This document shows positions 4,223-40,575 of a stretch of DNA of 60,110 bases, in pieces. Position 1 is the stretch's first letter. Each line of letters starts with the position of its first letter. Below the pieces are notes generated by a model. The model had not been told where the DNA came from, did not search any database, and saw only the letters and a program-made list of their open reading frames with translations. A program made the translations under genes and the position numbers. This stretch comes from a virus (Duplodnaviria; Heunggongvirae; Uroviricota; Caudoviricetes): the IMG/VR virus record IMGVR_UViG_2541047874_000004. One strand, 5' to 3'.

Positions 4223-4414
4223 TTAAAGACCTGCCGGGATTTCGATATTATCCTGGTGAATAACTTTATCGACCGGGTAACAGTTACCGGGAATTTTCTG
4301 TTCGGTTGCTGCAGTCATACACTCCTGCATTGTCCTGTGAACACTGACTGCAATATCAACTGGCTCTCCGGAAACAAGAAAAACTGTCAGAACAAGCACA
4401 AATGCTGAATTCAT
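4223..4414 (-). CDS. ydfD: YdfD-like small protein with N-terminal hydrophobic segment
   Basis: 63 aa from the internal Met (MNSAFVLVLTVFLVSGEPVDIAV...), matching recalled Qin YdfD; ATGA overlap with dicB. Confidence 0.6.
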   Translation of the reverse strand: MNSAFVLVLTVFLVSGEPVDIAVSVHRTMQECMTAATEQKIPGNCYPVDKVIHQDNIEIPAGL

Positions 4415-4599
4415 TGTGCACATCCTTTTGGCATCAGACGTAAACGAGCCAGCATTGAAACAATGCATATTTTATTTAATAGCTCCCGTTCTTGTTTTCT
4501 CTTGTTAATGGCATCTTCAGTAAATACTGGGTTACTGATAGTGACACCAATTTCAAAACAACCTTCAGACGTATTAACGTTTGGTAATAACGTTTTCAT
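4411..4599 (-). CDS. dicB: Cell-division inhibitor DicB
   Basis: 62-aa protein MKTLLPNVNTSEGCFEIGVTISNPVFTEDAINKRKQERELLNKICIVSMLARLRLMPKGCAQ matches recalled DicB. Confidence 0.85.
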   Translation of the reverse strand: MKTLLPNVNTSEGCFEIGVTISNPVFTEDAINKRKQERELLNKICIVSMLARLRLMPKGCAQ

Positions 4600-8855: not shown

Positions 8856-10007
8856 TGGAATGAAACGCAAATACCGGTAAGCCAGATTCTGGCACTGACA
8901 GACAGAAAACCTGTTATCTGTCAACGAACAGGGAAAAAACGATAAAACCCACTGGATTATTTTTATGAAAGAGGCATCCAGTGAGTAGATTCGTAAGGCT
9001 ACAGATACGTATATCTGAATAATTAAATTCAGTTCTGTAAATAAAATTTAATCCTTAACCGGATGGATTTCTGCACCCTCAGAACATCAGGAGGCCGCCC
9101 GAAAGGGCGGTAGTGAAATGCGAAAGTTCAAAATTATTATTGAAACGGGAATAGCTGGTGGAGATTTTGAGGATGTATTCGAAGTGGACGATGACGCAAC
9201 ACCTGAGGAAATTCATGACGGAGCATAAGAAATTTTCTTTAACTACTGCAATTACTCATACCACGAAATAAAAGACGATGAGGAAGAACAAAGTGGCTGA
9301 TTTTTGTTCAGCTAAATATAACATCAGTTTTGAAGAGCGGGATGAACTATTAATGGACTATGGTGAGTTACGCGGTGGAAGTGCTGCTGATGTCGAATCC
9401 TAGCGTGATGACTATGAAGCGGGAAAAACTCCGGTCGAAGCATATTGTGATGAGTGGGGCGATGAATGAGCGAGATTAATTATCAGGAAGGGCATGAAAC
9501 GGCGGGGCAAGCAAAACCAGTGGCATGGCGATATCGCTACGTGAAAAAAGGCGTTACGGACTTTCAGGGGAAGTAGTGGTCTGGTGACTGGAAATATGTA
9601 CCGAAAAAAGAGGATTGTAACGACAGGCCGAACTATCAAATTCAGGCCTTATTCACTGCCTCACCAGTCCCAGTTACATCAGAAGAACTGGTTAAAGCTG
9701 TGCACTTTTATGAACAACTAAAACGCGAAAATCCACCAACATCCGGCAACTAGATTAATGGATTAACTATGTCGGTTAAACGACCAGCCAACTGAAAAAG
9801 CGGAAACCTGATTACAGGTTGCCAGATAAGGCAATGAGCTACCTGGCGCGGAACGGACTGATAAGTATGGGGAATGTTTTACGATGAACCTTTAGACTAA
9901 AGAGTTTGTAACGCTATGTAAGTGATTTTTTCTGGTTTAGATATTTATATGTCCGGCCAAATTGAGGTGTGTTTAAATGTAATTGCACATTGATTGTAGG
10001 AGGAATA

Positions 10008-22419: not shown

Positions 22420-22640
22420 TTACGGGTCCTTTCCGGTGATCCGACAGGTTACGGGGCGGCGACCTCGCGGGTTTTCGCTATTTATGAAAATTTTCCGGTT
22501 TAAGGCATTTCCGTTCTTCTTCGTCGTAACTTAATGTTTTTATTTAAAATACCCCCTGAAAAGAAAGGAAACGACAGGTGCTGAAAACGAGCTTTTGGGC
22601 CTCTGTCGTTTCCTTTCTCTGTTTTTGTCCGTGGAATGAA
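22420..22640. promoter_or_regulatory. Helper prophage cos region (cosQ-cosN-cosB) with the lambda cohesive-end sequence
   Basis: ACGGGTCCTTTCCGGTGATCCGACAGGTTACG-GGGCGGCGACCT-CGCGGGTTTTCGCTATTTATGAAAATTTTCCGG matches recalled lambda cos; the 12-nt cohesive end lies at about 22454..22465, just upstream of the Nu1 gene. Confidence 0.8.
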
Positions 22641-28586: not shown

Positions 28587-28832
28587 ATGTCGATGTACAC
28601 AACCGCCCAGCTGCTGGCGGCAAATGAGCAGAAATTTAAGTTTGATCCGCTGTTTCTGCGTCTCTTTTTCCGTGAGAGCTATCCCTTCACCACGGAGAAA
28701 GTCTATCTCTCACAAATTCCGGGACTGGTAAACATGGCGCTGTACGTTTCGCCGATTGTTTCCGGTGAGGTTATCCGTTCCCGTGGCGGCTCCACCTCTG
28801 AATTTACGCCGGGATATGTCAAGCCGAAGCAC
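28587..28832 (+). pseudogene. E: Major capsid protein E, 5' fragment (first 82 codons) interrupted by the satellite insertion
   Basis: MSMYTTAQLLAANEQKFKFDPLFLRLFFRESYPFTTEKVYLSQIPGLVNMALYVSPIVSGEVIRSRGGSTSEFTPGYVKPKH matches lambda E up to KPKH, then diverges (LAWLSEAFV, stop at 28862). Confidence 0.9.
28822..28831. repeat. Left copy of the 10-bp direct repeat AGCCGAAGCA (putative attL core of the inserted satellite)
   Basis: Identical 10-mer at the other junction (39785..39794), both in the E reading frame. Confidence 0.7.
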
Positions 28833-28994
28833 TTAGCATGGCTTTCTGAGGCTTTCGTGTAGTTGCTGGTTTTTACACTTAATCTTTTGATAATAAAGAA
28901 TAAGTTTATCTGGCGCTTTCACTGAATTTTCCTCGTTATCTGTGTGTTGCAATCATCTCTGTATTGCAGCTTGTATTGCTTTTTGGGGCTAAAA

Positions 28995-30230
28995 ATGGCT
29001 GGCGAGAACAAACTGAGCGACAAAGCGCTTAAAGGATATCTGGGGAAACCCAGAGAAAAGCAGATCACCATTGCTGATGGAAAGGGGCTTTCTATTCGTG
29101 TGAGTACTAAAGGGGCTGTGAGCTTTGTTTTCTTCTACAGGTTAGCAGGTGGCCGGGCTGCTCCGGTCTGGCTAACGTTGGGTAAATATCCTGATATGTC
29201 ACTCAAACAGGCAAGGGAAAAGCGCGACGAGTGCCGTGGTTGGTTGGCTGACAAACGTGATCCGCGTATCCAGATTAAGATTCAGGCTGAAGAACGCTTA
29301 AAGCCGGTCACAGTGGAGGATGCACTAAATTACTGGTATGAAAATTACTGTAAGGTGCGTCGTAAAACTCATGCTGTAACGCTTGGCAGATTTCGAAAGC
29401 ATATCTTTCCCTATATCGGTCATTTGCCCGTAAATGACACTCACCTATATGAATGGCTGGACTGTTTTGACCGAATTAAACGTAATGCACCAGTTATGGC
29501 GGCGTATGTTTTTTCTGACACTAAATTAGCTCTTCGTTTTTGTCGGGTACGCCAGTACGCGACGTGTGATGCTTTAAAGGATTTGCGCATGAGTGATGTG
29601 GGGCAGATTGCAGGTAAGCGAGATCGGGTTCTGGATGAAGCCGAACTCGGCCAGCTCTGGAAGGCAATTTTTGTCGAGCCTGATTTAAAACTAATGTCTG
29701 AATACACGCGAAAAATGTTTGTGCTTTGTACAGTATTTGGATGTCGAATGAGTGAAGCCCGATTATCAGAATGGAGCGAATGGGATCTCGAAAGTTGGGT
29801 TTGGACTGTACCAAAAGATCACTCAAAAACTGGTGTTGAAATCGTCAGACCAGTACCTGAAATTCTACGACAGTGGGTAACGGATGTTCACGAAGAGACA
29901 AAACATACTGGTTATGTGCTGGGAAGTCTGCGAATTAGAGAAAGCGTAAGCAAGATTGGGGGGAAAATCGGTAAACGTTTGGGCCATGAAAAACAATGGT
30001 CACTACACGACCTTAGAAGAACGCTATCTACTCATCTAAGTGATCTCGGTGTTGAATTTTATGTAGTAGAACAACTGTTAGGCCATGCGCTACCTGGCGT
30101 GGCAGGTGTTTACAATCGGAGTAAGTTTATGGCTAAAAAACTGGATGCTCTGGAACTCTGGACTACATATCTCAATAGCATCGCAGGTGCTGATTCAAAA
30201 GTGACAATCCTCAAACAAAAGGCTGGTTAA
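28995..30230 (+). CDS. Satellite tyrosine integrase (P4-type)
   Basis: About 411 aa from MAGENKLSDKALKGY...; arm-binding-type N-terminus and C-terminal catalytic region (HDLRRTLSTHL...LLGHA...VYNRSKF). Confidence 0.85.
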   Translation: MAGENKLSDKALKGYLGKPREKQITIADGKGLSIRVSTKGAVSFVFFYRLAGGRAAPVWLTLGKYPDMSLKQAREKRDECRGWLADKRDPRIQIKIQAEERLKPVTVEDALNYWYENYCKVRRKTHAVTLGRFRKHIFPYIGHLPVNDTHLYEWLDCFDRIKRNAPVMAAYVFSDTKLALRFCRVRQYATCDALKDLRMSDVGQIAGKRDRVLDEAELGQLWKAIFVEPDLKLMSEYTRKMFVLCTVFGCRMSEARLSEWSEWDLESWVWTVPKDHSKTGVEIVRPVPEILRQWVTDVHEETKHTGYVLGSLRIRESVSKIGGKIGKRLGHEKQWSLHDLRRTLSTHLSDLGVEFYVVEQLLGHALPGVAGVYNRSKFMAKKLDALELWTTYLNSIAGADSKVTILKQKAG

Positions 30231-30231
30231 C

Positions 30232-30459
30232 ATGAAAAAAATGGCAATTGTTGATAAAAAGGGTCTGGAGTACATTCCTAACATTGATCGTATGATCCGT
30301 GAGAAAGAATGTCGGGAGCTAACCACTCTTGCGAACAGCACACGCTGGAAGCTGGAGAAGGAAGGAAAATTTCCTAAGCGGATCAAGATTGGCGCTACTG
30401 CGGTAGCTTACCGTCTCTCCGAAGTTCAGGCATGGATTAGGGGGGAATGGCGGACATAA
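30232..30459 (+). CDS. alpA: AlpA-family transcriptional regulator
   Basis: 75 aa with the AlpA-type HTH (ECRELTTLANSTRWKLEKEGKFPKRIKIGATAVAYRLSEVQAWI) directly after int, as in PICI/P4-like satellites. Confidence 0.75.
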   Translation: MKKMAIVDKKGLEYIPNIDRMIREKECRELTTLANSTRWKLEKEGKFPKRIKIGATAVAYRLSEVQAWIRGEWRT

Positions 30460-30495
30460 ATGTTGTAGTAAATTGTTATATAAAAGGGTGTAAGC

Positions 30496-31371
30496 ATGGC
30501 TACTCGAAAAAAAAATAGCGTAGAAATGAAAACTGTTTGTGAACTAATCATATCAAGAGATGATATGAAAGATAAAATTCAAGACAGAATTCAAAAAGGA
30601 TTATTACTCCTACAGAAAAGCATAAATAACAATAGTGACTTGGAGCTGTTTAATGCTGATTACAGGAAATGGAGTGATTTTAATGCTGAGCTACTGAAGC
30701 GTAGTTTCACAAATGATGATTTCAAAGAAGAATATGAAGGTGGGGCATTTGGTGTTATTTCATTGTACGAGACTTCCTTGGGAGAAAAAATCAGTGAGGC
30801 TACGCGTAAACTCCAGAGTAAGATAAGAAAACTAGAGTCGATTATGGAGCGACTGGAGTTAATTCCTATATCTTCCAAAGTTGTTGAAGAAAATATTGAA
30901 GTACCTCAGAGTTCAGCGGTAAAAACCAAAAAGGTATTCATTGTTCATGGAAGAGATGAAATATCAAAAACCAACTTAGAAGTGTTTTTAAGAGAAATTG
31001 GCTTAGAACCTATTGTTCTCCATAGGCAAGCTGATGTAGGTCAGACAGTGATTGAGAAATTTGAAGCAAATAGTGATGTTGGTTTCGCATTCATTCTTCT
31101 CACACCTGATGAGATCGCTTATTTATTGCCGCAAGACTCTTTACCTGATAATGAAAGAGAAAAGGAGTTACGTGCACGACCAAATGTAATGTTTGAATTT
31201 GGTTATTTCGTAGGGAAATTAGGTCGTTCTAAGGTTTGTTGTCTATACACAGGTGATGTAGTGATTCCAAGTGATTTGAATGGTCTTATTTATAAAAAAT
31301 TCAATTCTTCTATTGAAGAAGTAGCATATAGCATTATTAAAGACTTGCGAGCTACTGGTTACGCAGTTTAG
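30496..31371 (+). CDS. TIR-like nucleotide-binding domain protein (Cap12/PycTIR-type C-terminal domain) with coiled-coil N-terminal domain; candidate anti-phage effector
   Basis: C-terminal KKVFIVHGRDEISKTNLEVFLREIGLEPIVLHRQADVGQTVIEKFEANSDVGFAFILLTPDE...RARPNVMFEFGYFVGKLGRSKVCCLYTGDVVIPSDLNGLIY fits the recalled TIR-like family signature; no cyclase or partner gene adjacent. Confidence 0.65.
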   Translation: MATRKKNSVEMKTVCELIISRDDMKDKIQDRIQKGLLLLQKSINNNSDLELFNADYRKWSDFNAELLKRSFTNDDFKEEYEGGAFGVISLYETSLGEKISEATRKLQSKIRKLESIMERLELIPISSKVVEENIEVPQSSAVKTKKVFIVHGRDEISKTNLEVFLREIGLEPIVLHRQADVGQTVIEKFEANSDVGFAFILLTPDEIAYLLPQDSLPDNEREKELRARPNVMFEFGYFVGKLGRSKVCCLYTGDVVIPSDLNGLIYKKFNSSIEEVAYSIIKDLRATGYAV

Positions 31372-31400
31372 TAAATTCTTTGAACTAAAAATCTGCATAG

Positions 31401-31434
31401 ATATAGAGCCATTCGAGATAAATGGCTCTATATG
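31401..31434. terminator. Bidirectional terminator-like hairpin between convergent satellite genes
   Basis: ATATAGAGCCATT-CGAGATAA-ATGGCTCTATAT inverted repeat. Confidence 0.5.
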
Positions 31435-31446
31435 AAATATTATCTG

Positions 31447-31626
31447 TTAAATTTTGACTTCATATCCGCGTTGCTGTAGTTCTTTGCGAATAATCCTTTT
31501 AATCCAGGCTGCTAAAGATTCGTCTCCATCTACTTGCTGTGCTTGCTCCATCAACTCCCTCAACTCAGGATCTAACCGAAACTGGAACGGAGGATTACCA
31601 CGTCTTTGATTTTTGTGTGTTGACAC
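31447..31626 (-). CDS. Small ribbon-helix-helix-like regulator (tentative; GTG start)
   Basis: Hand translation of the minus strand: VSTHKNQRRGNPPFQFRLDPELRELMEQAQQVDGDESLAAWIKRIIRKELQQRGYEVKI; RHH-like pattern (FQFRLDPELRE...SLAAWIKRII); divergent from the operator-like inverted repeat. Confidence 0.35.
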   Translation of the reverse strand: MSTHKNQRRGNPPFQFRLDPELRELMEQAQQVDGDESLAAWIKRIIRKELQQRGYEVKI

Positions 31627-31680
31627 GTCAATTACACCCGATGTAATGTGTTAATGTGTGATGACACATTACATACGTGT
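31621..31680. promoter_or_regulatory. Operator-like inverted repeats in the satellite divergent promoter region
   Basis: ATGTAATGTG ... CACATTACAT inverted repeat between the tentative RHH gene and the rightward replication operon. Confidence 0.4.
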
Positions 31681-31756
31681 TTAGGAAAATGCAACGCCTC
31701 GACGTGCGGGAACACCATCGAGGCGTCTAACCAACCCGTTAAATGAGGTAACGATT

Positions 31757-32122
31757 ATGGCTGGAACACAGCATACCCAAACTCACCCTAAATTTATATA
31801 CACCTTTCTGGCACTACACCACGACCGCATGGCAGATGGAGCAACTACGGTACATGTAGCCGCTGACACGCTGGTTGATGCCCGCAAGATGGTTAAGGAG
31901 ATGGGCTATACTGCGGCTTTCTGGAAAGGGCGTGAAGAAAACACGCTGTTTATTCAGAAATGCGAAAACAATTTCATCTGGCGTTTTATCGCCCTGAGCA
32001 CCGCACAACCACGCGTAATACACATCGAGGCCGCCAGCGAACAGGAAGCCCGGCTGCAATCCCCAACTGGCTACGTGATGATATTCGCCGCCCGTATTCG
32101 TCAGGAGGTGTGCCATGAATGA
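31757..32122 (+). CDS. Hypothetical satellite protein
   Basis: 121-aa ORF with an upstream GAGGT ribosome-binding site; first gene of the rightward operon leading to the primase. Confidence 0.5.
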   Translation: MAGTQHTQTHPKFIYTFLALHHDRMADGATTVHVAADTLVDARKMVKEMGYTAAFWKGREENTLFIQKCENNFIWRFIALSTAQPRVIHIEAASEQEARLQSPTGYVMIFAARIRQEVCHE

Positions 32123-32339
32123 TCTTTATTTTAAAGTGCTGACACATGCTGAAAACGCGCTCGTTTGTGGCAAAAATATGCGAGAAATCTTATCAACCTG
32201 GCTTGATGGGACAACAAATGCGGAACACGATGAACGGGATGCTAATTTAGCTGGAGCGTTAATTACGTTACTTGATCCTGTCATCAAAGAGCTGGATGAA
32301 GCTATAAAAATACACGACCAGAGCTATACCGGAGAATAA
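32115..32339 (+). CDS. Hypothetical satellite protein
   Basis: 74-aa ORF, translationally coupled (ATGAATGA overlap). Confidence 0.45.
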   Translation: MNDLYFKVLTHAENALVCGKNMREILSTWLDGTTNAEHDERDANLAGALITLLDPVIKELDEAIKIHDQSYTGE

Positions 32340-32342
32340 AAA

Positions 32343-32630
32343 ATGAAAAATAAATTTTCTGGCTTTATTGCCAGCGGTCAAACTCATTCAAAAATCAGCC
32401 TTGGGGATATTTTCAAAGACAGCTATGGCTATCGGGTAAAGATTATTTCGGTTGATGATCGTCGTGTCTCTTATTTGCGTGATGGTTATGATTTTGAATG
32501 TGTTATGCCGCGTCAGCAGTTCGAAAGAGATTTCATTCTGGTAAAAAATTGCAAGACAGATAATCAGAGGCGTGCCGCAGGCTATATCCGTAAAATTCGG
32601 GCAATGTTAGTTGCCGGAGGTAACAAATGA
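32343..32630 (+). CDS. Hypothetical satellite protein
   Basis: 95-aa ORF, overlaps the primase start (ATGA). Confidence 0.45.
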   Translation: MKNKFSGFIASGQTHSKISLGDIFKDSYGYRVKIISVDDRRVSYLRDGYDFECVMPRQQFERDFILVKNCKTDNQRRAAGYIRKIRAMLVAGGNK

Positions 32631-34447
32631 AACGTGCTCCGAACTTAAAATACCAACCGCGCGACAAAATGACGGAAGTCATCATTTTTGCTGGCAGTGA
32701 TGCCTGGAGCCATGCAAAAGAATGGAATGAATGGGCAGGTAAGCATATTGCAGCAGATGATACACCACCAGTCATTCTGGGTACGGAACAACTGGAAAAC
32801 CTGGATGATATGCAAATTATCGATGAAGGCCGTCATTATGTGCGTGTTTATCGTGCCGGAAAGATTGCAGAGAAAAGTCTGACGAAGGTTGCGACATTAC
32901 TTGCTATTGCAGGCGTAAAGGAAGCACGTTGTTACCGTAGCTTTGTTGATCGAGAGCCTGAAGACTGGACTCCGCGCCTTGTCGGCCTAAAAGCTGAAGC
33001 GGAGCATGGGGAAAGTCTGGTGATTGAACTGCCAGTGAAGAAGGCAGAGCGCAAAAATGACGAGCGTGCTTCATCTTTGGCGTTGAATCAGATGGGGGCC
33101 AGCCAGCGCGGTGAAGTTCTCCTTGCACATTACGGCGGCGAACTGGCAATCAATGCCGACTCTGACACCGTTCATCATTACAACGGCGTTGTATGGGAGC
33201 CGGTTCAGGATAAAGAGTTACAGCGTGCTATGGCGCAGATTTTCATTGATGCGGAGATCAGCTATTCGCAGAACGCTATTAAATCGGCGGTAGATACCAT
33301 GAAGTTAAGTTTGCCTGTAATGGGGAATACAGCCCGTAACCTGATTGGATTCAGTAACGGGGTATTTGATACCAGAACTGGTAATTTTCGGGAGCATAAC
33401 AAAAACGACTGGTTGTTAATTGCCAGTGAATTACCTTTCAGTCCACCAGCAGAGGGGGAAACGCTGGCAACACATGCGCCGAATTTCTGGAAGTGGTTGC
33501 GCCGTTCGGTGGCTGAGAATGACCGCAAGGCAGATCGCGTACTGGCGGCATTATTCATGGTGCTGGCGAACCGGTACGACTGGCAGTTATTCATTGAGGT
33601 AACAGGGCCGGGGGGAAGTGGTAAAAGTGTGATGGCGGAGATTTGCACCATGCTGGCGGGTAAGGCTAATACAGTATCAGCAAGCATGAAGGCGCTGGAA
33701 GATGCAAGGGAACGTGCGTTAGTGGTTGGCTTTTCGCTGATTATCATGCCGGATATGACCCGCTACGCTGGTGATGGGGCAGGGATTAAGGCCATTACAG
33801 GCGGTGACAAGGTGGCAATTGACCCGAAACACAAAGCCCCCTATTCAACGCGTATTCCGGCAGTAGTGCTGGCGGTTAACAATAACGCCATGTCATTCAG
33901 TGACCGCAGCGGGGGGATCTCACGTCGTCGGGTGATATTCAATTTTTCGGAAGTTGTACCGGAGAACGAACGCGATTCGATGCTGGCGGAAAAAATAGAA
34001 GGTGAGCTGGCGGTAGTGATTCGCCATCTGCTTACACGGTTTGCTGATCAGGACGAAGCCAGACGCCTGTTATATGAGCAGCAGAAATCTGAAGAAGCAC
34101 TGGCGATAAAGCGAGAGGGGGATTCGCTGGTGGACTTCTGCGGCTATCTCATGGCATCGGTAATGTGTGATGGCCTGTTAGTGGGTAATGCTGAAATTGT
34201 GCCATTCAGCCCACGCAGGTATCTCTATCATGCCTATCTGGCTTATATGAGGGCACATGGGTTTGGTAAACCTGTAACACTGACGCGCTTCGGTAAAGAT
34301 ATGCCGGGGGCAATGGCGGAATATGGCAGGGAGTATATGAAACGGAAAACGAAGCACGGTTTGCGTTCAAACGTGACACTGACGGAGGAATCAGAAGACT
34401 GGATGCCATCATGTGTATCGGTCACTAATGACGATAGCAAAAATTAA
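32627..34447 (+). CDS. Primase/replicative helicase (P4 alpha-like, D5_N plus P-loop NTPase)
   Basis: 606 aa; Walker A GPGGSGKS, Walker B-like LIIMPDM; cognate TGTTCACC iterons immediately downstream. Confidence 0.8.
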   Translation: MKRAPNLKYQPRDKMTEVIIFAGSDAWSHAKEWNEWAGKHIAADDTPPVILGTEQLENLDDMQIIDEGRHYVRVYRAGKIAEKSLTKVATLLAIAGVKEARCYRSFVDREPEDWTPRLVGLKAEAEHGESLVIELPVKKAERKNDERASSLALNQMGASQRGEVLLAHYGGELAINADSDTVHHYNGVVWEPVQDKELQRAMAQIFIDAEISYSQNAIKSAVDTMKLSLPVMGNTARNLIGFSNGVFDTRTGNFREHNKNDWLLIASELPFSPPAEGETLATHAPNFWKWLRRSVAENDRKADRVLAALFMVLANRYDWQLFIEVTGPGGSGKSVMAEICTMLAGKANTVSASMKALEDARERALVVGFSLIIMPDMTRYAGDGAGIKAITGGDKVAIDPKHKAPYSTRIPAVVLAVNNNAMSFSDRSGGISRRRVIFNFSEVVPENERDSMLAEKIEGELAVVIRHLLTRFADQDEARRLLYEQQKSEEALAIKREGDSLVDFCGYLMASVMCDGLLVGNAEIVPFSPRRYLYHAYLAYMRAHGFGKPVTLTRFGKDMPGAMAEYGREYMKRKTKHGLRSNVTLTEESEDWMPSCVSVTNDDSKN

Positions 34448-34454
34448 ACTTATG

Positions 34455-34695
34455 GAATAACTGTTCACCACTGTTCACCCTGTCATAAATATCTTTTATA
34501 TCAGTATATTATAGGGTGAACAGTTATTTATGAACTGTTCACCAAACTATTCACTGTTCACCTTTTTGATTGTTTATTGAGCTTCAAGGGTGAACAGTGG
34601 TGAACAGTTGGTGAATAGTTTTTGTGAAACTGTTCACCCATTAACATTATGAATTAAAAGAGAAAATATCAAAAGGTGAACAGGTGAAGGGTTAA
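34455..34695. repeat. Satellite replication origin: about 9-10 copies of the octamer TGTTCACC / GGTGAACA in both orientations
   Basis: Seen directly (for example CTGTTCACCACTGTTCACC, GGTGAACAGTGGTGAACAG); P4 ori/crr are built from TGTTCACC iterons bound by alpha (recalled). Confidence 0.75.
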
Positions 34696-34734
34696 AACGC
34701 AAAAATTTTAATTTACTGCTGTGAGATAAAGCCT

Positions 34735-34980
34735 ATGACAGCGAAGCACACAAAAAAATCACAATCGCACGCCCTTGATTTGACGGAACACTGGTTAAGG
34801 GTGTCGATAAAAATCATCGACCGCAACGCCGGGGAAGGATACGCGAAAGCACATCCCGAACTGATTAGCGCATTCATGACAACGGCGGCTGCAAACTTTG
34901 CCACTCTGACCGAACGGGAGATTGCTGAAGCGGAGGAAGTGACAACAATCAATATTAAGTCCGGAGAGCAGGCAGCATGA
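34735..34980 (+). CDS. Hypothetical satellite protein
   Basis: 81-aa ORF; ATGA overlap with ssb. Confidence 0.45.
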   Translation: MTAKHTKKSQSHALDLTEHWLRVSIKIIDRNAGEGYAKAHPELISAFMTTAAANFATLTEREIAEAEEVTTINIKSGEQAA

Positions 34981-35426
34981 CGGCGCAAATATCAGTTTAC
35001 GGGCGGTTGGTGGACGACCCGCAGACAAAACAGACCAGCAAGGGCACCCCCATGACGCTGGCGCGTATGGCGGTATCACTGCCCTGCAGTCAGTCGGATG
35101 ACGGTCAGGCGACGATGTGGTTATCTGTCCTGGCGTTTGGCAGACAAGCCGACGCGCTGGCAAAGCATCACAAAGGCGAACTCCTGAGCGTGGCGGGTAA
35201 TATGCAGGTGAGCCAGTGGACTGGACAGAACGGTGAAACGCGGCAGGGCTGGCAGGTTATCGCAGACAGCGTAATCAGTGCGCGAACGGTGCGACCGGGC
35301 GGCAAAAAAGGTCAACAGGGTCAGGCTACTGACGCACTGAACAGAGCAAAACAACAGGCAGATCAGCAAGGAAGCCATCCACCAGTGGGAGATAATGAAC
35401 AATGGGGAGATGATATTCCGTTTTAA
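34977..35426 (+). CDS. ssb: Single-stranded DNA-binding protein
   Basis: 149 aa; OB-fold-like N-terminus, Gly/Gln-rich linker and C-terminal acidic tail ending DDIPF. Confidence 0.8.
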   Translation: MTAQISVYGRLVDDPQTKQTSKGTPMTLARMAVSLPCSQSDDGQATMWLSVLAFGRQADALAKHHKGELLSVAGNMQVSQWTGQNGETRQGWQVIADSVISARTVRPGGKKGQQGQATDALNRAKQQADQQGSHPPVGDNEQWGDDIPF

Positions 35427-35643
35427 ATATTGCCAATAAAAAAGGCCGGAAAAAAATAAATTTTCCGGCATGCTACATAAATCCCGACCAAAGGGAGTGA
35501 AGATATTAACACTAATTATCCGCGCTGAAGTTGTTATCCCAAAACTTTATACAACATTGCACTCGGTTGCATGTATTCGCATGACAAATATCGGTGATAG
35601 CATATATCCACAATTATTTTTAATGAATGCAAAGAGGATGCGT

Positions 35644-36684
35644 ATGGTTGATTTATATTCGCCTACCCAGCTTGTACAGGTGGTTAATGCTGTAGATGTA
35701 CAAAAACAACTAAATGCGTTGTTTACCAGTTTGTTTTTTACTCGCTCGGTAATGTTTGAATCGCGCGATATTATTCTTGATACAATCGACGATCCAAATA
35801 TCCCAATTGCAGCGTTTTGTTCTCCTATGGTGGGTAGTAAAGTTTCACGTGACGAAGGGTACGAATCAAAAACAATTCGTCCAGGCTATATGAAGCCGAA
35901 AAGCAGCATTGATCCAAATAAGTTAGCTGTGCGCCCTGCTGGTGTATCACCTGAGCAATACAATGCTTTTGGAGCGCGTAATATTAAAGTTAAACAGGCG
36001 ATTGTAAATCAGGCTAAAGCTATTCGTACACGTATTGAATGGCTTGCCGTTCAGGCAATCACAACGGGGAAAAATATCATTGAGGGCGATGGTATTGAAC
36101 GTTATGAGCTGGACTGGAATATTAAACCACAAAATATCATCACTCAGTCTGGCGGTGCTGAGTGGTCAGGTAAGGATAAAGAAACTTTTGATCCAAATGA
36201 TGATATTGAGAGCTACGCAGAATTTAGTGAGGGCGTCACTAATATCATCATTATGGGCGGTAATGTATGGAAGAAATACCGTTCATTCAGAGCGATAAAA
36301 GAGGCTTTGGATACCCGTCGTGGTTCTAATTCCGAACTGGAAACGGCTCTTAAAGACCTTGGTGATTCGGTGAGTTTTAAAGGGTATATGGGCGATGTTG
36401 CGATTGTTGTATACAGCGGGCGTTATACCGACGAGGACGGAACTGAAAAACATTTCCTTGATCCTGATTTGATGGTGCTTGGCAATACGGCTCTTCAGGG
36501 GATTGTCGCCTATGGCGGTATTCAGGATCCGGAGCTAATCCGAATGGGGCTGACTAAAGCCGAACTTGCACCGAAAAACTATATTGTGCCTGGTGATCCG
36601 GCTATTGAATATGTGCAGACACATTCAGCACCACAGCCAATACCGGCCCGCATCAATCGTTTTGTTACCGTTCGCATTGGCTAA
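35644..36684 (+). CDS. Satellite-encoded major capsid protein homolog (lambda E-like)
   Basis: Aligns along its length with the helper E protein (for example ITQSGGAEWSGKDKETFDPNDDIESYA vs ITQSGGTQWSQRDKSTYDPTDDIEAYA; LDTRRGSNSELETALKDLGDSVSFKGYMGDVAIVVYSG vs LDTRRGSHSELETAVKDLGKAVSYKGMYGDVAIVVYSG). Start chosen at the ATG after the AAGAGGA ribosome-binding site; the ORF track extends to 35470. Confidence 0.8.
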   Translation: MVDLYSPTQLVQVVNAVDVQKQLNALFTSLFFTRSVMFESRDIILDTIDDPNIPIAAFCSPMVGSKVSRDEGYESKTIRPGYMKPKSSIDPNKLAVRPAGVSPEQYNAFGARNIKVKQAIVNQAKAIRTRIEWLAVQAITTGKNIIEGDGIERYELDWNIKPQNIITQSGGAEWSGKDKETFDPNDDIESYAEFSEGVTNIIIMGGNVWKKYRSFRAIKEALDTRRGSNSELETALKDLGDSVSFKGYMGDVAIVVYSGRYTDEDGTEKHFLDPDLMVLGNTALQGIVAYGGIQDPELIRMGLTKAELAPKNYIVPGDPAIEYVQTHSAPQPIPARINRFVTVRIG

Positions 36685-36693
36685 GGGGGAGCA

Positions 36694-37035
36694 ATGGCTA
36701 CTCATTACACTGAACTCATGGCTGGCACTGAAGCACTGGTGACTACGCTGGGGATATTTTCAGCTAATAAAGGGGTAATTCCTGCATTTACGCCACTGAT
36801 GCAGGAAGATGCAACAGGTGCACTGGTGGTATGGGATGGTTCGAGCGTAGGTAAAGCGGTTTATGTTTCCGCTGTACAAATCGACACCGCGAAAAAAACA
36901 CAGGCTCAGGTCTATAAGACAGGTGTCTTAAATGTTGATGCTCTGAACTGGCCTGAGTCTGTAAAAGAACTGTCAGTAAAGATTGCAGCGTTTGTTGGCT
37001 CAGGTATTTCTGTTCAGCCGCTGGCTCGTGTGTAA
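36694..37035 (+). CDS. Putative head decoration protein (lambda D-like)
   Basis: 113 aa; shares the TPLM...LVVWDG...KTG...WPE...GISV pattern with gpD and is adjacent to the E-like gene; the homology is weak. Confidence 0.5.
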   Translation: MATHYTELMAGTEALVTTLGIFSANKGVIPAFTPLMQEDATGALVVWDGSSVGKAVYVSAVQIDTAKKTQAQVYKTGVLNVDALNWPESVKELSVKIAAFVGSGISVQPLARV

Positions 37036-37046
37036 AGGGGGATACA

Positions 37047-37430
37047 ATGCAGAATGATTACAATGACCTTAAGCCAATTGCCGAAATGATGTACCCGAAT
37101 CCAGCTGTAGAGGAATTAAAAGCTATCGCTGACAAAATGTGTTTAAGCGAGCGCCTTGTTGATATGAATCAGGTGATGGAAATTACAACCCTGAGTCGGC
37201 GTACACTGCTAAACCTTGAGGCTAGTGGAGAGTTCCCGGAGCGTGTGCAGGTTACGGAAGGGCGTAAGGCCTGGTATTTAAGTGAAGTGATCGACTGGAT
37301 AAATAATATTCCTCGCGCTTCTGAATATTGCCGCGTACCTGTCCCAAAAAAGCCAGATGCGGCGCTATGCCTCAAGATTGAGCGTGTACGCCGCAATGCA
37401 CGGGATGGTCGCTATAAGCTGATTGGTTGA
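37047..37430 (+). CDS. AlpA-like HTH-domain protein
   Basis: 127 aa with MNQVMEITTLSRRTLLNLEASGEFPERVQVTEGRKAWYLSEVIDWINN; ribosome-binding site AGGGGGA upstream. Confidence 0.55.
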   Translation: MQNDYNDLKPIAEMMYPNPAVEELKAIADKMCLSERLVDMNQVMEITTLSRRTLLNLEASGEFPERVQVTEGRKAWYLSEVIDWINNIPRASEYCRVPVPKKPDAALCLKIERVRRNARDGRYKLIG

Positions 37431-37456
37431 TGAAATTAGGGCCCGCTCTGGCTGGC

Positions 37457-37530
37457 GGGTCCTTTCCGGCGATCCGGCAGGCTACGGGGCGGAAGGCGCG
37501 CGGGTTTTCGCTATTTATGAGCATTTTAAG
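37457..37530. promoter_or_regulatory. Satellite cos-like site with an altered cohesive-end sequence
   Basis: CGGGTCCTTTCCGGCGATCCGGCAGGCTACG-GGGCGGAAGGCG-CGCGGGTTTTCGCTATTTATGAGCATTTT; flanks are conserved with the helper cos, 6 substitutions fall inside the 12-nt cohesive-end segment. Confidence 0.7.
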
Positions 37531-37646
37531 GGGACTGGTGGTGGTTTTGTTGTTCGCTATATCTGTATGAATAATAAGAGAAAAATACAATCAATACACC
37601 AACCTGAAACAGTAATTAAGTTGTGGTATCAATGAAATTACACCTG

Positions 37647-38174
37647 ATGAACAAAAAAAACATGGCAAAAAGTTGCCGTGTAAGCGCCACTGCGTTCGAT
37701 AAGTGGGGAGTGATTCCCGTCGAGCGTAAGGGCCGTGAGGCGTTCTATGATGTTGCCAGTGTAATAGATAATCGGGTTAACAATGCAATCAGCCAGATTA
37801 CAAACGAAACGGGCGATATTGATGACGATGAACTTTTACGCGTCAGGATCAGATTACTGACAGCACAGGCAGAGGCGCAGGAGCTTAAAAACGAGCGCGA
37901 ACGCGGCGACGTTATTGATACAGAGTTTTGTATGTATGTTCTTTCCAAACTGGCGAGTCAGATTTCATCTATCATGGACAGCCTGCCGCTTACCATGCAA
38001 AGGCGCTTCCCACAGATGACTCCGGCTATGCTGGATGGACTTAAAAAGGAAGTGGCTAAAGCCTGTAATGCCAGTGCCGGCGTTGCTGACAACCTCCCAC
38101 AGATACTGGCTGATTATCTGATGGAAAGTACAGGAAACGTACCGGATAAGTTGCAGCTGAATAAGGATAAGTAA
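37647..38174 (+). CDS. Terminase small subunit-like protein (Nu1 C-terminal homology, divergent N-terminal DNA-binding domain)
   Basis: C-terminal half aligns with helper Nu1 (TAQAEAQELKNERERGDVIDTEFCMYVLSKLASQISSIMDSLPLTMQRRFPQ vs TRAQATAQELKNAKESAEVVETAFCTFVLSRIAREISSILDGIPLSVQRRFPE); the N-terminus differs. Start uncertain (ATG at 37632, 37647 or 37662). Confidence 0.7.
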   Translation: MNKKNMAKSCRVSATAFDKWGVIPVERKGREAFYDVASVIDNRVNNAISQITNETGDIDDDELLRVRIRLLTAQAEAQELKNERERGDVIDTEFCMYVLSKLASQISSIMDSLPLTMQRRFPQMTPAMLDGLKKEVAKACNASAGVADNLPQILADYLMESTGNVPDKLQLNKDK

Positions 38175-38185
38175 CGTAGTACGCT

Positions 38186-38461
38186 ATGACTGAATCCGAA
38201 CTACTGAAAGTAATCTGCCATGCTGGTGGAGTCAGCCACCAGCATGACGAACAGACCACGCAGCCGGGCAGTGTCACCGCTGAAAATTACGCTCGTGTGG
38301 TTGCTGAGGTTATGTGGCGTGACGGTATAGAACTGAACGGACAGGATTGCTTAGTCATCCGCACCAAAGTGGTGGCTATACTGGCAGCTAGGCGGAGGCA
38401 GGGACAACGCCAGAACGTTGCATCGTACCAGTGGAAGAAGCCTGACAGACTGCGGCGATAA
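38186..38461 (+). CDS. Hypothetical satellite protein
   Basis: 91-aa ORF after the TerS-like gene. Confidence 0.4.
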   Translation: MTESELLKVICHAGGVSHQHDEQTTQPGSVTAENYARVVAEVMWRDGIELNGQDCLVIRTKVVAILAARRRQGQRQNVASYQWKKPDRLRR

Positions 38462-38863
38462 CTCTTTGATTTTCTCGACGGCCCCAAAATGGGCCTTACC
38501 ATAGCCAGCTAATAAATGAGCAAGCCTCAAAAGTGAGGTTTGTGGCCGTTTGGCCTATTCATATGCTAACTCGTTGATATTCCTGACGACGCAAATTTAC
38601 GCCTTGTGGCTGGTAGTCGAATTGCAAATTTGCAACTCAACTATGAAACTACAGGTAGTTTGGGTAGTAAAAGCAACACACTGATTTTGGGGCTTCTTCG
38701 CGATACCTAATATTATGGTATCGGTGGAAGAGATATCGTTTCTCATAGGTTAGCACCGAGGGCGGAGTTCCGCCCTCATCGAAAAATTGCTTACGAGTCG
38801 TCAAAATAAATTAATCGACTGAGTATAATGATTAACTAATTGCTCGTGTTACTTCATTATACG

Positions 38864-39625
38864 TTATTTCCCATCTTTAAGGTTTAACCAAGTGTTAATT
38901 AAAAAAAGAGCCATTGAGCCTGATAAATTTACTGCAAGTTCGGCATGCCTTGGGGATGGCTTAATTGATGAGCTGTTCGTTCCATGTGCATCACCGAGTT
39001 TATTACGAAGAGTACCTAACCCATTTACAACTGCAGAACAACCGCCGAGAATTTGTTTGAAGATATTTTCAGTATGTTGGTCGGCAGATAGGTTAAGTTC
39101 TTTTGAAAGAGTTTTATAAAGCTCTGACATTTCAATATTTTTATTATTATACTGAATGCCCATATCATCAAGAATGTGTTTGCAAACTGTTTCAAGAAGT
39201 GTTCTTGCGGAGGTTATCGCACCATCCGGATCTGTATGGCGCCGTTCAAGTGCTTTTATCCAAACGGCGTGGACTCCATCCTCGTTAAACTTTCTTAATA
39301 CATCAGATATGTCTTCATCCGCTGGAGCTTTATTTTTCCCTTCTAGATAATCCAGCATCGGCTGAAATGCCTTATAAATCAAATCTCTCCGGGGGGCATA
39401 CTTTTCAGTCTTTTTTATAAATCCCCAAAATTCTTTTAGTGAGCGATTAGTTCTCACAAACTCTGGTAATAGCTGATGTAAAGGAGGATTTTGTAAGAAA
39501 TATGTTCTTAGAAGCAAATAATCATTATTAGCTTCATCCTGGGCTCCTGTAGCTCTTGCAATTAGTATGTTTTGAAGCGCTACTGCGCGCTCTAGGTCAT
39601 TTTGAAGGGTATCTATAATATTCAT
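38864..39625 (-). CDS. Abortive-infection-like protein with Abi_C-type C-terminal domain; candidate defense cargo
   Basis: 253 aa; C-terminal GLGTLRNKLGDAHGT...PSPRHAELAVNLSGSMALFLINTWL fits the recalled Abi C-terminus signature; opposite strand to the rest of the element, at its right end. Confidence 0.55.
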   Translation of the reverse strand: MNIIDTLQNDLERAVALQNILIARATGAQDEANNDYLLLRTYFLQNPPLHQLLPEFVRTNRSLKEFWGFIKKTEKYAPRRDLIYKAFQPMLDYLEGKNKAPADEDISDVLRKFNEDGVHAVWIKALERRHTDPDGAITSARTLLETVCKHILDDMGIQYNNKNIEMSELYKTLSKELNLSADQHTENIFKQILGGCSAVVNGLGTLRNKLGDAHGTNSSSIKPSPRHAELAVNLSGSMALFLINTWLNLKDGK

Positions 39626-39784
39626 AACAAATCTTTATTCACTTCATTTGTGGGTTGATAATTGAATGGTTTGTACATTGATTTCTGTGTATTGCAGTGT
39701 GTATTGCAACATAGCCATTCAGGTAGAGATTATGCTCTATTTTTCCTCTTATATCATTCACATACTTACACCATTGACTCATGT

Positions 39785-39794
39785 AGCCGAAGCA
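39785..39794. repeat. Right copy of the 10-bp direct repeat AGCCGAAGCA (putative attR core)
   Basis: Identical to 28822..28831; E resumes in frame immediately here. Confidence 0.7.
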
Positions 39795-40575
39795 TGAAGT
39801 GAATCCGCAGATGACCCTGCGTCGCCTGCCGGATGAAGATCCGCAGAATCTGGCGGACCCGGCTTACCGCCGCCGTCGCATCATCATGCAGAACATGCGT
39901 GACGAAGAGCTGGCCATTGCTCAGGTCGAAGAGATGCAGGCCGTTTCTGCCGTGCTTAAGGGCAAATACACCATGACCGGTGAAGCCTTCGATCCGGTTG
40001 AGGTGGATATGGGCCGCAGTGAGGAGAATAACATCACGCAGTCCGGCGGCACGCAGTGGAGCCAGCGTGACAAGTCCACGTATGACCCGACCGACGATAT
40101 CGAAGCCTACGCGCTGAACGCCAGCGGTGTGGTGAATATCATCGTGTTCGATCCGAAAGGCTGGGCGCTGTTCCGTTCCTTCAAGGCCGTCAAGGATAAG
40201 CTGGATACCCGTCGCGGCTCTCATTCCGAGCTGGAGACAGCGGTGAAAGACCTGGGCAAAGCGGTGTCCTATAAGGGAATGTATGGCGATGTGGCCATCG
40301 TCGTGTATTCCGGACAGTACGTGGAAAACGGCGTCAAAAAGAACTTCCTGCCGGACAACACGATGGTGCTGGGGAACACTCAGGCACGCGGTCTGCGCAC
40401 CTATGGCTGCATTCAGGATGCGGACGCACAGCGCGAAGGCATTAACGCCTCTGCCCGTTACCCGAAAAACTGGGTGACCACCGGCGATCCGGCGCGTGAG
40501 TTCACTATGATTCAGTCAGCACCGCTGATGCTGCTGGCTGACCCTGATGAGTTCGTGTCCGTACAACTGGCGTAA
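39787..40575 (+). pseudogene. E: Major capsid protein E, 3' fragment (resumes at ...PKHEVNPQMTLRR)
   Basis: Matches recalled lambda E from EVNPQMTLRRLPDEDPQNLADPAYRRRR to the C-terminus DPDEFVSVQLA; no ATG or ribosome-binding site of its own (the ORF track begins at GTG 39799). Confidence 0.9.

Follow-up and report, generated by a model that had tools for sequence, protein, structure and literature searches.

The window analysed here is a 60,110-bp stretch of DNA in which a satellite of ~11 kb (28833-39796) interrupts the capsid gene E of a lambdoid prophage and is co-oriented with that gene. Terminase, portal, protease and decoration genes of the helper prophage lie before the satellite, and its FI-to-tail genes lie after it. 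The 10-bp identity block AGCCGAAGCA is found on the plus strand at both junctions: attL (28823..28832) lies within the helper capsid gene E, with the satellite starting at 28833, and gene E resumes beyond attR (39787..39796). A split capsid gene is also annotated in Escherichia coli E04 and NRG857c. The satellite genes are arranged in one direction, the 5′ part holding an integrase (28944-30230), a small HTH gene, a TIR-domain gene, an Icd-like gene, a DUF4222 gene and pri. These are followed by the putative origin, an 81-aa ORF, an SSB gene, the satellite's own lambda E-type capsid gene (35470-36684) and D-type decoration gene (36694-37035), and a further HTH gene. The 81-aa ORF (PHROG 1231, phrog_1231) and the SSB gene (Pfam SSB) together occupy 34735..35426 on the plus strand and complete the replication zone; their order is the same in NRG857c and in EcCICFT073, the model Gram-negative PICI (Fillol-Salom et al. 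2018, PMC6092414). The arrangement corresponds to the PICI gene order (int, alpA-type HTH, ..., pri, ori, late genes, all in one direction). Judged from its sequence, the element is a Gram-negative PICI of the helper-embedded type founded on Eco567.11capE (11capE) of E. coli NRG857c (Tommasini, Mageeney & Williams 2023, PMC10111431), and not a P4 relative.

Several accessory features were observed in the satellite. Between the alpA-type and Icd-like genes, the plus strand (30496-31371) encodes a protein of 291 aa whose TIR domain is of the CAP12/Pycsar-effector type (Pfam E=1e-33). NRG857c carries another gene at this position, which looks like a slot for anti-phage cargo. At the right end of the satellite, matching genomes label a 253-aa ORF on the minus strand (38864-39625) as 'abortive infection family protein'; in NRG857c and E04 its place is taken by DUF262 and HEPN genes, and these differing genes point to a second variable defence slot. 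Paired repeats TGTATTGCAG..TGTATTGC located just within the satellite ends (28956-28979 and 39684-39707) are probably arm-type integrase binding sites. A cos-like site of the satellite (37456-37530) is ~86% identical over 72 nt to the helper cos (22423-22494), and the right half of cosN differs between the two (GGGCGGAAGGCG in the satellite versus GGGCGGCGACCT in the helper). For its packaging, the satellite may depend on a terminase whose specificity is redirected, a change already reported in other E. coli PICIs.

Close copies of the pri-ori-ssb segment are present in ~500 of 5,426 complete E. coli genomes, and at least 80% of the prophage-satellite composite is present in 44 complete E. coli genomes. 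Among the genomes listed, E. coli E04 (NZ_CM143912.1) provides the sole 100% match to pri-ori-ssb; its satellite is disrupted by IS66 (in int), IS3, IS5 and IS200, so that the window must stem from a different copy that is less decayed. A 10,790-bp circular E. coli record deposited as a plasmid, pZ1323HEC0475-3 (NZ_CP148328.1), is an excised PICI that encodes int, AlpA, Icd-like, DUF4222 and Pri proteins, the same origin and an HK97-type protease-capsid fusion. Its identity to the window is 98% across the final 550 bp of pri together with the origin gap, and all nine exact repeat sites described below are retained (9/9). Finding the same origin on a different PICI backbone indicates that the pri-ori cassette is common to PICIs with different integrases and late modules.

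Between pri and the 81-aa ORF lies an AT-rich, non-coding region of 287 bp (34448..34734, no strand assigned), in which the GC content is 27-38% compared to ~50% in the flanks. An exact-match count of TGTTCACC on both strands of the window returned 13 matches versus 2.03 expected, and 0 of 100 shuffles reached 13. Nine of the thirteen TGTTCACC/GGTGAACA matches fall within 221 bp (34462-34682), five on the plus strand (34462, 34472, 34536, 34555 and 34631) and four on the minus strand (34515, 34589, 34599 and 34675). Reading of the sequence added three degenerate octamers, GGTGAATA (34610-34617, one mismatch), TATTCACT (34548-34555, two mismatches) and GGTGAAGG (34683-34690, two mismatches), giving 12 sites in the gap with a span of 34462-34690. 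The first iteron begins 15 bp past the stop codon (34445-34447) of the 606-aa ORF 32627-34447. An earlier sequence-only reading of the locus, which placed at least nine octamers in both orientations within about 240 bp (34455-34695) directly after a 'primase' gene, was thus accurate as to number, orientation and position. The gap 34448-34734 contains no ORF longer than 29 aa and gave no match to Rfam families. A DnaA box, the IHF consensus, GATC and a 13-mer motif are all absent from it; the lack of the first three fits a self-contained initiator.

The 12 sites form two inverted units of ~100 bp around a centre near 34575 (inverted-repeat pairs I1 and I2). Each unit follows the same plan: three sites, 13 bp, one site in the opposite orientation, a 35/36-bp spacer that is 80-83% AT, and two further sites. 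The left unit (34462..34562, minus strand), read in minus-strand order, consists of an iteron at 34555-62, the degenerate site at 34548-55 and an iteron at 34536-43, then the 13-bp gap, the opposite iteron at 34515-22, a 35-bp spacer of 80% AT (34480-34514) and iterons at 34472-79 and 34462-69. The right unit (34589..34690, plus strand) consists of iterons at 34589-96 and 34599-606 and the degenerate site at 34610-17, then the 13-bp gap, the opposite iteron at 34631-38, a 36-bp spacer of 83% AT (34639-34674), an iteron at 34675-82 and the degenerate site at 34683-90. A central segment of 26 bp (34563..34588, 73% AT, no strand assigned) surrounds the dyad centre. Assuming 10.5 bp per turn, the site centres all fall within ~1/3 turn of one helical face. 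As a single strand, 253 nt of the region fold into one long hairpin (z = -7.75); this fold arises because the two units are inverted, and it restates the dyad symmetry.

The gene immediately upstream, pri (32627..34447, plus strand), encodes an initiator protein of 606 aa, Pri, with Pfam matches to D5_N, DUF5906 and Pox_D5. D5_N and the SF3 helicase (DUF5906, with a P-loop) span aa 163-449 by Pfam. A C-terminal winged-helix origin-binding domain follows at aa 497-594 (34115..34408; Pfam Pox_D5 at aa 497-592), of which aa 498-594 match PDB 1KA8, the origin-binding domain of P4 alpha, in a phmmer search (E=1.9e-24). Over the C-terminal three-quarters of the protein (aa 149-596), Pri is 51% identical to P4 alpha aa 323-771. 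The remaining N-terminal alpha/beta domain (aa 1-130; 32627..33016) stands where P4 alpha has its zinc-ribbon/TOPRIM primase region. Pfam finds Zn_Ribbon_Prim and Toprim_3 in P4 alpha and neither of them in Pri, hhalign gave a probability of 0.5%, and the fold similarity of Pri to TOPRIM primases is weak and uncorroborated. Because Pri has no recognisable primase domain, 'primase' is an unproven annotation label. The 'satellite primase' of the sequence-only reading therefore stands as regards an alpha-type helicase with an origin-binding domain and falls as regards a primase domain, no zinc ribbon or TOPRIM being recognisable. Similarly, only the helicase and binding domains underlie the common annotation 'DNA primase family protein'.

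One relative, from Enterobacter hormaechei, shows 80% identity across the helicase and binding domains, and its origin is of the same double inverted form; the N terminus of its protein (L012:2080-4452) is a zinc ribbon plus Toprim_3, unlike that of Pri in the window. Since the N termini differ and the remainder is alike, these N-terminal modules are interchangeable. The 130-aa N-terminal domain of Pri is itself conserved in PICIs ranging from Escherichia to Haemophilus (33-34% identity over the full length). Database proteins also show it joined to other downstream segments, most such matches being truncated proteins, which suggests module shuffling at the initiator N terminus. As the homologous-protein matches were mostly truncated, they were adequate for alignment of the N-terminal region only.

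In P4, alpha binds type I iterons (see also the P4 GenBank annotation and PDB 1KA8), and ori and crr are required as two separate cis elements. The octamer TGTTCACC is the 'ori type 1 repeat' annotated in both P4 ori and crr (X51522). This record contains six octamers in ori (9310-9413) and ten in crr (4291-4590), with crr immediately following the alpha gene; counted from the alpha stop codon, the P4 clusters lie at -4.7 kb and at +52 to +316. The best blastn match of the window origin region was P4 ori 9304-9378 (E=5e-6), which aligns with the right unit. A unit alignment was assembled from both window units, P4 ori, both crr repeats and two units from Escherichia phage vB_KppS-Ant. The left and right window units aligned with each other, with P4 ori and with both crr repeats column for column, and across all units the site columns were invariant and the spacing equal. 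The right window unit closely resembles a crr repeat. By this alignment, P4 ori and crr are built from a single kind of unit. The comparison with P4 ori and crr that had been proposed for this locus thus finds both window units homologous to ori and to each crr repeat. The earlier description of a P4-type iteron origin is upheld by the octamer identity, the blastn match to P4 ori and the 1KA8 domain in the upstream protein, and that of a replication module of P4-family ancestry by the 51% identity of Pri to alpha and the aligned units. Within the alpha gene itself, P4 and two P4-type relatives (L035 and L022) have a single TGTTCAC at the same position, 563 bp before the stop codon of alpha; it may be conserved coding sequence or be related to P4's second replicon.

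A scan with one genome per species returned 72 relatives. Site conservation was assessed in eight relatives with the same octamer from different genera, the comparison covering Raoultella, Pluralibacter, Kluyvera, Citrobacter, Klebsiella and Serratia. Iteron columns were more conserved than spacer columns (mean 0.93 versus 0.76; 62% versus 32% invariant; Mann-Whitney p=6e-10). Other relatives have replaced the octamer while keeping its position and the twelve-site layout: TGTCTACC occurs in relatives from E. ruysiae, Kluyvera georgiana and E. hormaechei, TGTCCGCC or TGTCCACC in Serratia relatives, and TCTCTACC in a Symbiopectobacterium relative. A Proteus relative has TGTGCACC mixed with TGTTCACC in a single unit, with no inverted pair.

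These substitutions are accompanied by a change in the initiator. In the lineage whose binding domains are 73-84% identical to that of the window protein, the segment corresponding to KRKTKHGLRSN (aa 572-582; 34340..34372, plus strand) is 82-91% identical in relatives with the same octamer. In equally diverged relatives with different octamers, the segment is 19-25% identical and carries a 5-aa insertion, whereas the binding domain outside aa 572-582 is still 73-77% identical. Within this lineage, only an 11-16-residue segment of the binding domain changes along with the octamer. This co-variation of protein and repeat is the strongest in-silico evidence that the repeats are likely binding sites of the Pri C-terminal domain, and it locates a putative specificity determinant at aa 572-582. 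From the helix order in 1KA8 (PMC2777425), the segment lies after the YLYHAY helix and the helix next to it, and from this position we infer that it forms the beta-hairpin 'wing'. A single-sequence AlphaFold model of the C-terminal domain had a pLDDT of 42 and was discarded. If aa 572-582 are the determinant, exchanging them for RKQCTRGPDKGRTISN should shift the specificity to TGTCTACC. The relatives would then represent a natural experiment in which a winged-helix initiator alters its DNA specificity by the swap of a short segment, with the domain otherwise constant.

The repeats and their inverted architecture, the homology to P4 ori/crr and to the alpha binding domain, the selective conservation of the octamers and their co-variation with Pri all support the model that the gap 34448-34734 is the replication origin of a helper-embedded PICI, recognised by the Pri protein encoded directly upstream. 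We assign this reading a probability of roughly 0.85. According to PMC6092414, Gram-negative PICI origins are situated just 3′ of the initiator gene and have iteron sets flanking AT-rich DNA; the window origin has this form, with iterons 15 bp 3′ of pri and spacers that are 80-83% AT. In the same source, an EcCICFT073 pri-ori clone keeps a temperature-sensitive plasmid at the restrictive temperature, while clones lacking ori or pri fail to do so (PMC6092414). By analogy with this homologous pri-ori experiment, the window origin would be expected to replicate autonomously. The 10.8-kb circular record with the same origin offers circumstantial support for a pri-ori replicon. Because Pri has no recognisable primase domain, self-sufficiency of the replicon is not assured.

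The alternative that best survives makes the cluster no more than a cis enhancer of the crr kind or a 'sink' for protein loading, with initiation elsewhere in the satellite or at the helper prophage origin, the latter copying the embedded satellite passively. The cluster does sit at the P4 crr position, right after an alpha-type gene, and its right unit is close to a crr repeat. Upon induction of 11capE, the attP:attB ratio was near 1 in two of three repeats and 1.6-1.9 in the third, and little replication followed excision (PMC10111431). Autonomous replication of 11capE after excision thus appears weak or masked, and its authors note that the helper can passively replicate an embedded satellite within the composite (PMC10111431). 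However, the element (28833-39796) contains no second iteron cluster, the units also match P4 ori, which is the site of the best blastn match, and in EcCICFT073 the equivalent gap together with pri suffices for plasmid replication, which deletion of the gap impairs (PMC6092414). We consider a pure enhancer role improbable to a high degree.

A still slimmer chance is given to the repeats being mainly operators, through which Pri would exert feedback control on read-through from its own gene, or control whether the SSB and capsid genes downstream are expressed. The sites do lie between two co-oriented gene blocks, winged-helix proteins are often regulators, and a regulatory role could coexist with origin function. 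Against a primarily regulatory role, consensus searches of 34200-35000 for sigma-70-like promoters and intrinsic terminators gave nothing above chance, and a 230-bp dyad holding twelve phased sites and AT-rich spacers is origin-like rather than operator-like. The sites of P4 alpha are moreover replication elements, and EcCICFT073 shows a replication phenotype (PMC6092414).

Equally hard to sustain is the view that the origin is a decaying relic whose pri-ori module no longer functions, the helper copying the satellite. Such decay could account for the weak replication of 11capE after excision (PMC10111431), for the three degenerate sites among the twelve and for a Pri protein with no recognisable primase domain. 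The pri ORF is nevertheless intact, with 605 of 606 residues identical between strains, and the origin is identical at 300 of 301 positions and retained at 98% in a different PICI backbone on a free circle. The octamers are selectively conserved across genera, and relatives and P4 have their degenerate sites at these positions too, indicating that the degeneracy is part of the design. Finally, the cluster was ruled out as a packaging site, since a separate cos-like site is found at ~37456-37530.

The reading as a Pri-recognised origin suggests the following mechanism. By inference from P4 alpha and EcCICFT073, the winged-helix domain of Pri would bind the twelve phased TGTTCACC-type sites. Binding would gather the SF3 helicase on both sides of the dyad, such that two hexamers could assemble in opposite orientation. 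Melting would occur either at one of the 35/36-bp spacers (80-83% AT) or in the central 26 bp, and the satellite's own SSB would coat the unwound strands. Priming, by the unusual N-terminal domain or by host DnaG, would then lead to bidirectional theta replication. In evolutionary terms, the module is the PICI form of the P4 alpha/ori/crr module, in which an ori unit and a crr-like unit are fused head to head right behind the gene.

An origin located after pri in PICIs, the 11capE-type element and the P4 type I iteron are all already known. The pri-ori module of 11capE-type PICIs has been described, and in their available text the PICI papers mention only 'distant homology' of Pri-Rep with P4 proteins (PMC6092414, PMC10111431). 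The word 'iteron' is absent from the 11capE paper (PMC10111431), and a search for the bare octamer in the full-text literature matched only unrelated primer sequences. The additions made here are modest: homology of P4 ori/crr and the PICI origin at the level of the unit, the inverted pair, the octamer-linked specificity segment and the missing primase domain. They fix the annotation of the gap as a satellite origin and of the surrounding 11 kb as a known helper-embedded PICI, and they make the P4 and Gram-negative PICI replication modules one family whose likeness extends to the internal build of the origin unit. The general view of how satellites replicate stays as it was.

The octamer is shared exactly between the window PICI and P4, and their recognition segments are similar (KRKTKHGLRSN in the window PICI versus KRHTKQGIQTN in P4). 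A shared octamer read by a similar segment implies that the two initiators might fire or titrate each other's origins. We hold as speculative, and rather unlikely, two readings: that P4 and PICI origins cross-talk through the shared octamer, and that the N-terminal domain of Pri is a new minimal primase or an adaptor recruiting host DnaG. If the first is true, two families of satellites with different helpers would interfere in replication, through cross-talk or incompatibility. In that case the 11-16-residue segment would be a swappable specificity cassette, letting lineages escape such cross-talk.

Among described elements, 11capE has its integration site in capsid gene E and its 10-bp att identity block in common with the window satellite (PMC10111431). 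At the NRG857c locus, 605 of 606 Pri residues and 300 of 301 nt of the origin gap are identical to the window; no differences separate the small ORF, capsid, decoration and HTH proteins of the two elements, and the SSB variants are nearly identical. The two elements differ in accessory cargo, the TIR-domain and Abi-family genes of the window being replaced in NRG857c by other genes (DUF262, HEPN). EcCICFT073 shares the order of DUF4222, pri, origin gap, small ORF, ssb, and capsid and decoration genes, and likewise has a twelve-site inverted origin directly 3′ of pri. Its Pri protein is 44% identical to that of the window over the full length, N-terminal domain included. In contrast, its iteron is (C)TGTCTACC/TCTACC rather than TGTTCACC, its binding domain comes from a different lineage, one of its spacers is GC-rich, and it is integrated in the chromosome and not in a prophage.

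P4 and the window origin have in common an identical octamer, a unit plan of three sites, ~13 bp, one opposite site, ~36 bp of AT-rich DNA and two sites, and homologous SF3 helicase and winged-helix domains; crr adjoins the initiator gene as the window cluster does. In P4, however, ori is one unit and crr consists of two direct 120-bp repeats 4.5 kb away, whereas in the window two units are fused as an inverted pair at the crr position, with no distant partner. As the element contains a single cluster, the P4 mechanism is not transferable unchanged. The proteins diverge at the N terminus, where alpha aa 1-320 form the zinc-ribbon/TOPRIM region and the window Pri has an unrelated 130-aa domain instead. 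The window element also differs from P4 in its lambda-type capsid genes, cos-like site and int/alpA layout.

A more distant analogy is provided by SV40 large T antigen and papillomavirus E1, viral SF3 helicase initiators with palindromic origins. Their binding-domain fold and site sequences are unrelated to those of the window, where the double hexamer is a proposal. The resemblance lies in the fusion of an SF3 helicase to a sequence-specific origin-binding domain, and in inverted sites that flank AT-rich DNA and so permit head-to-head assembly of a double hexamer.
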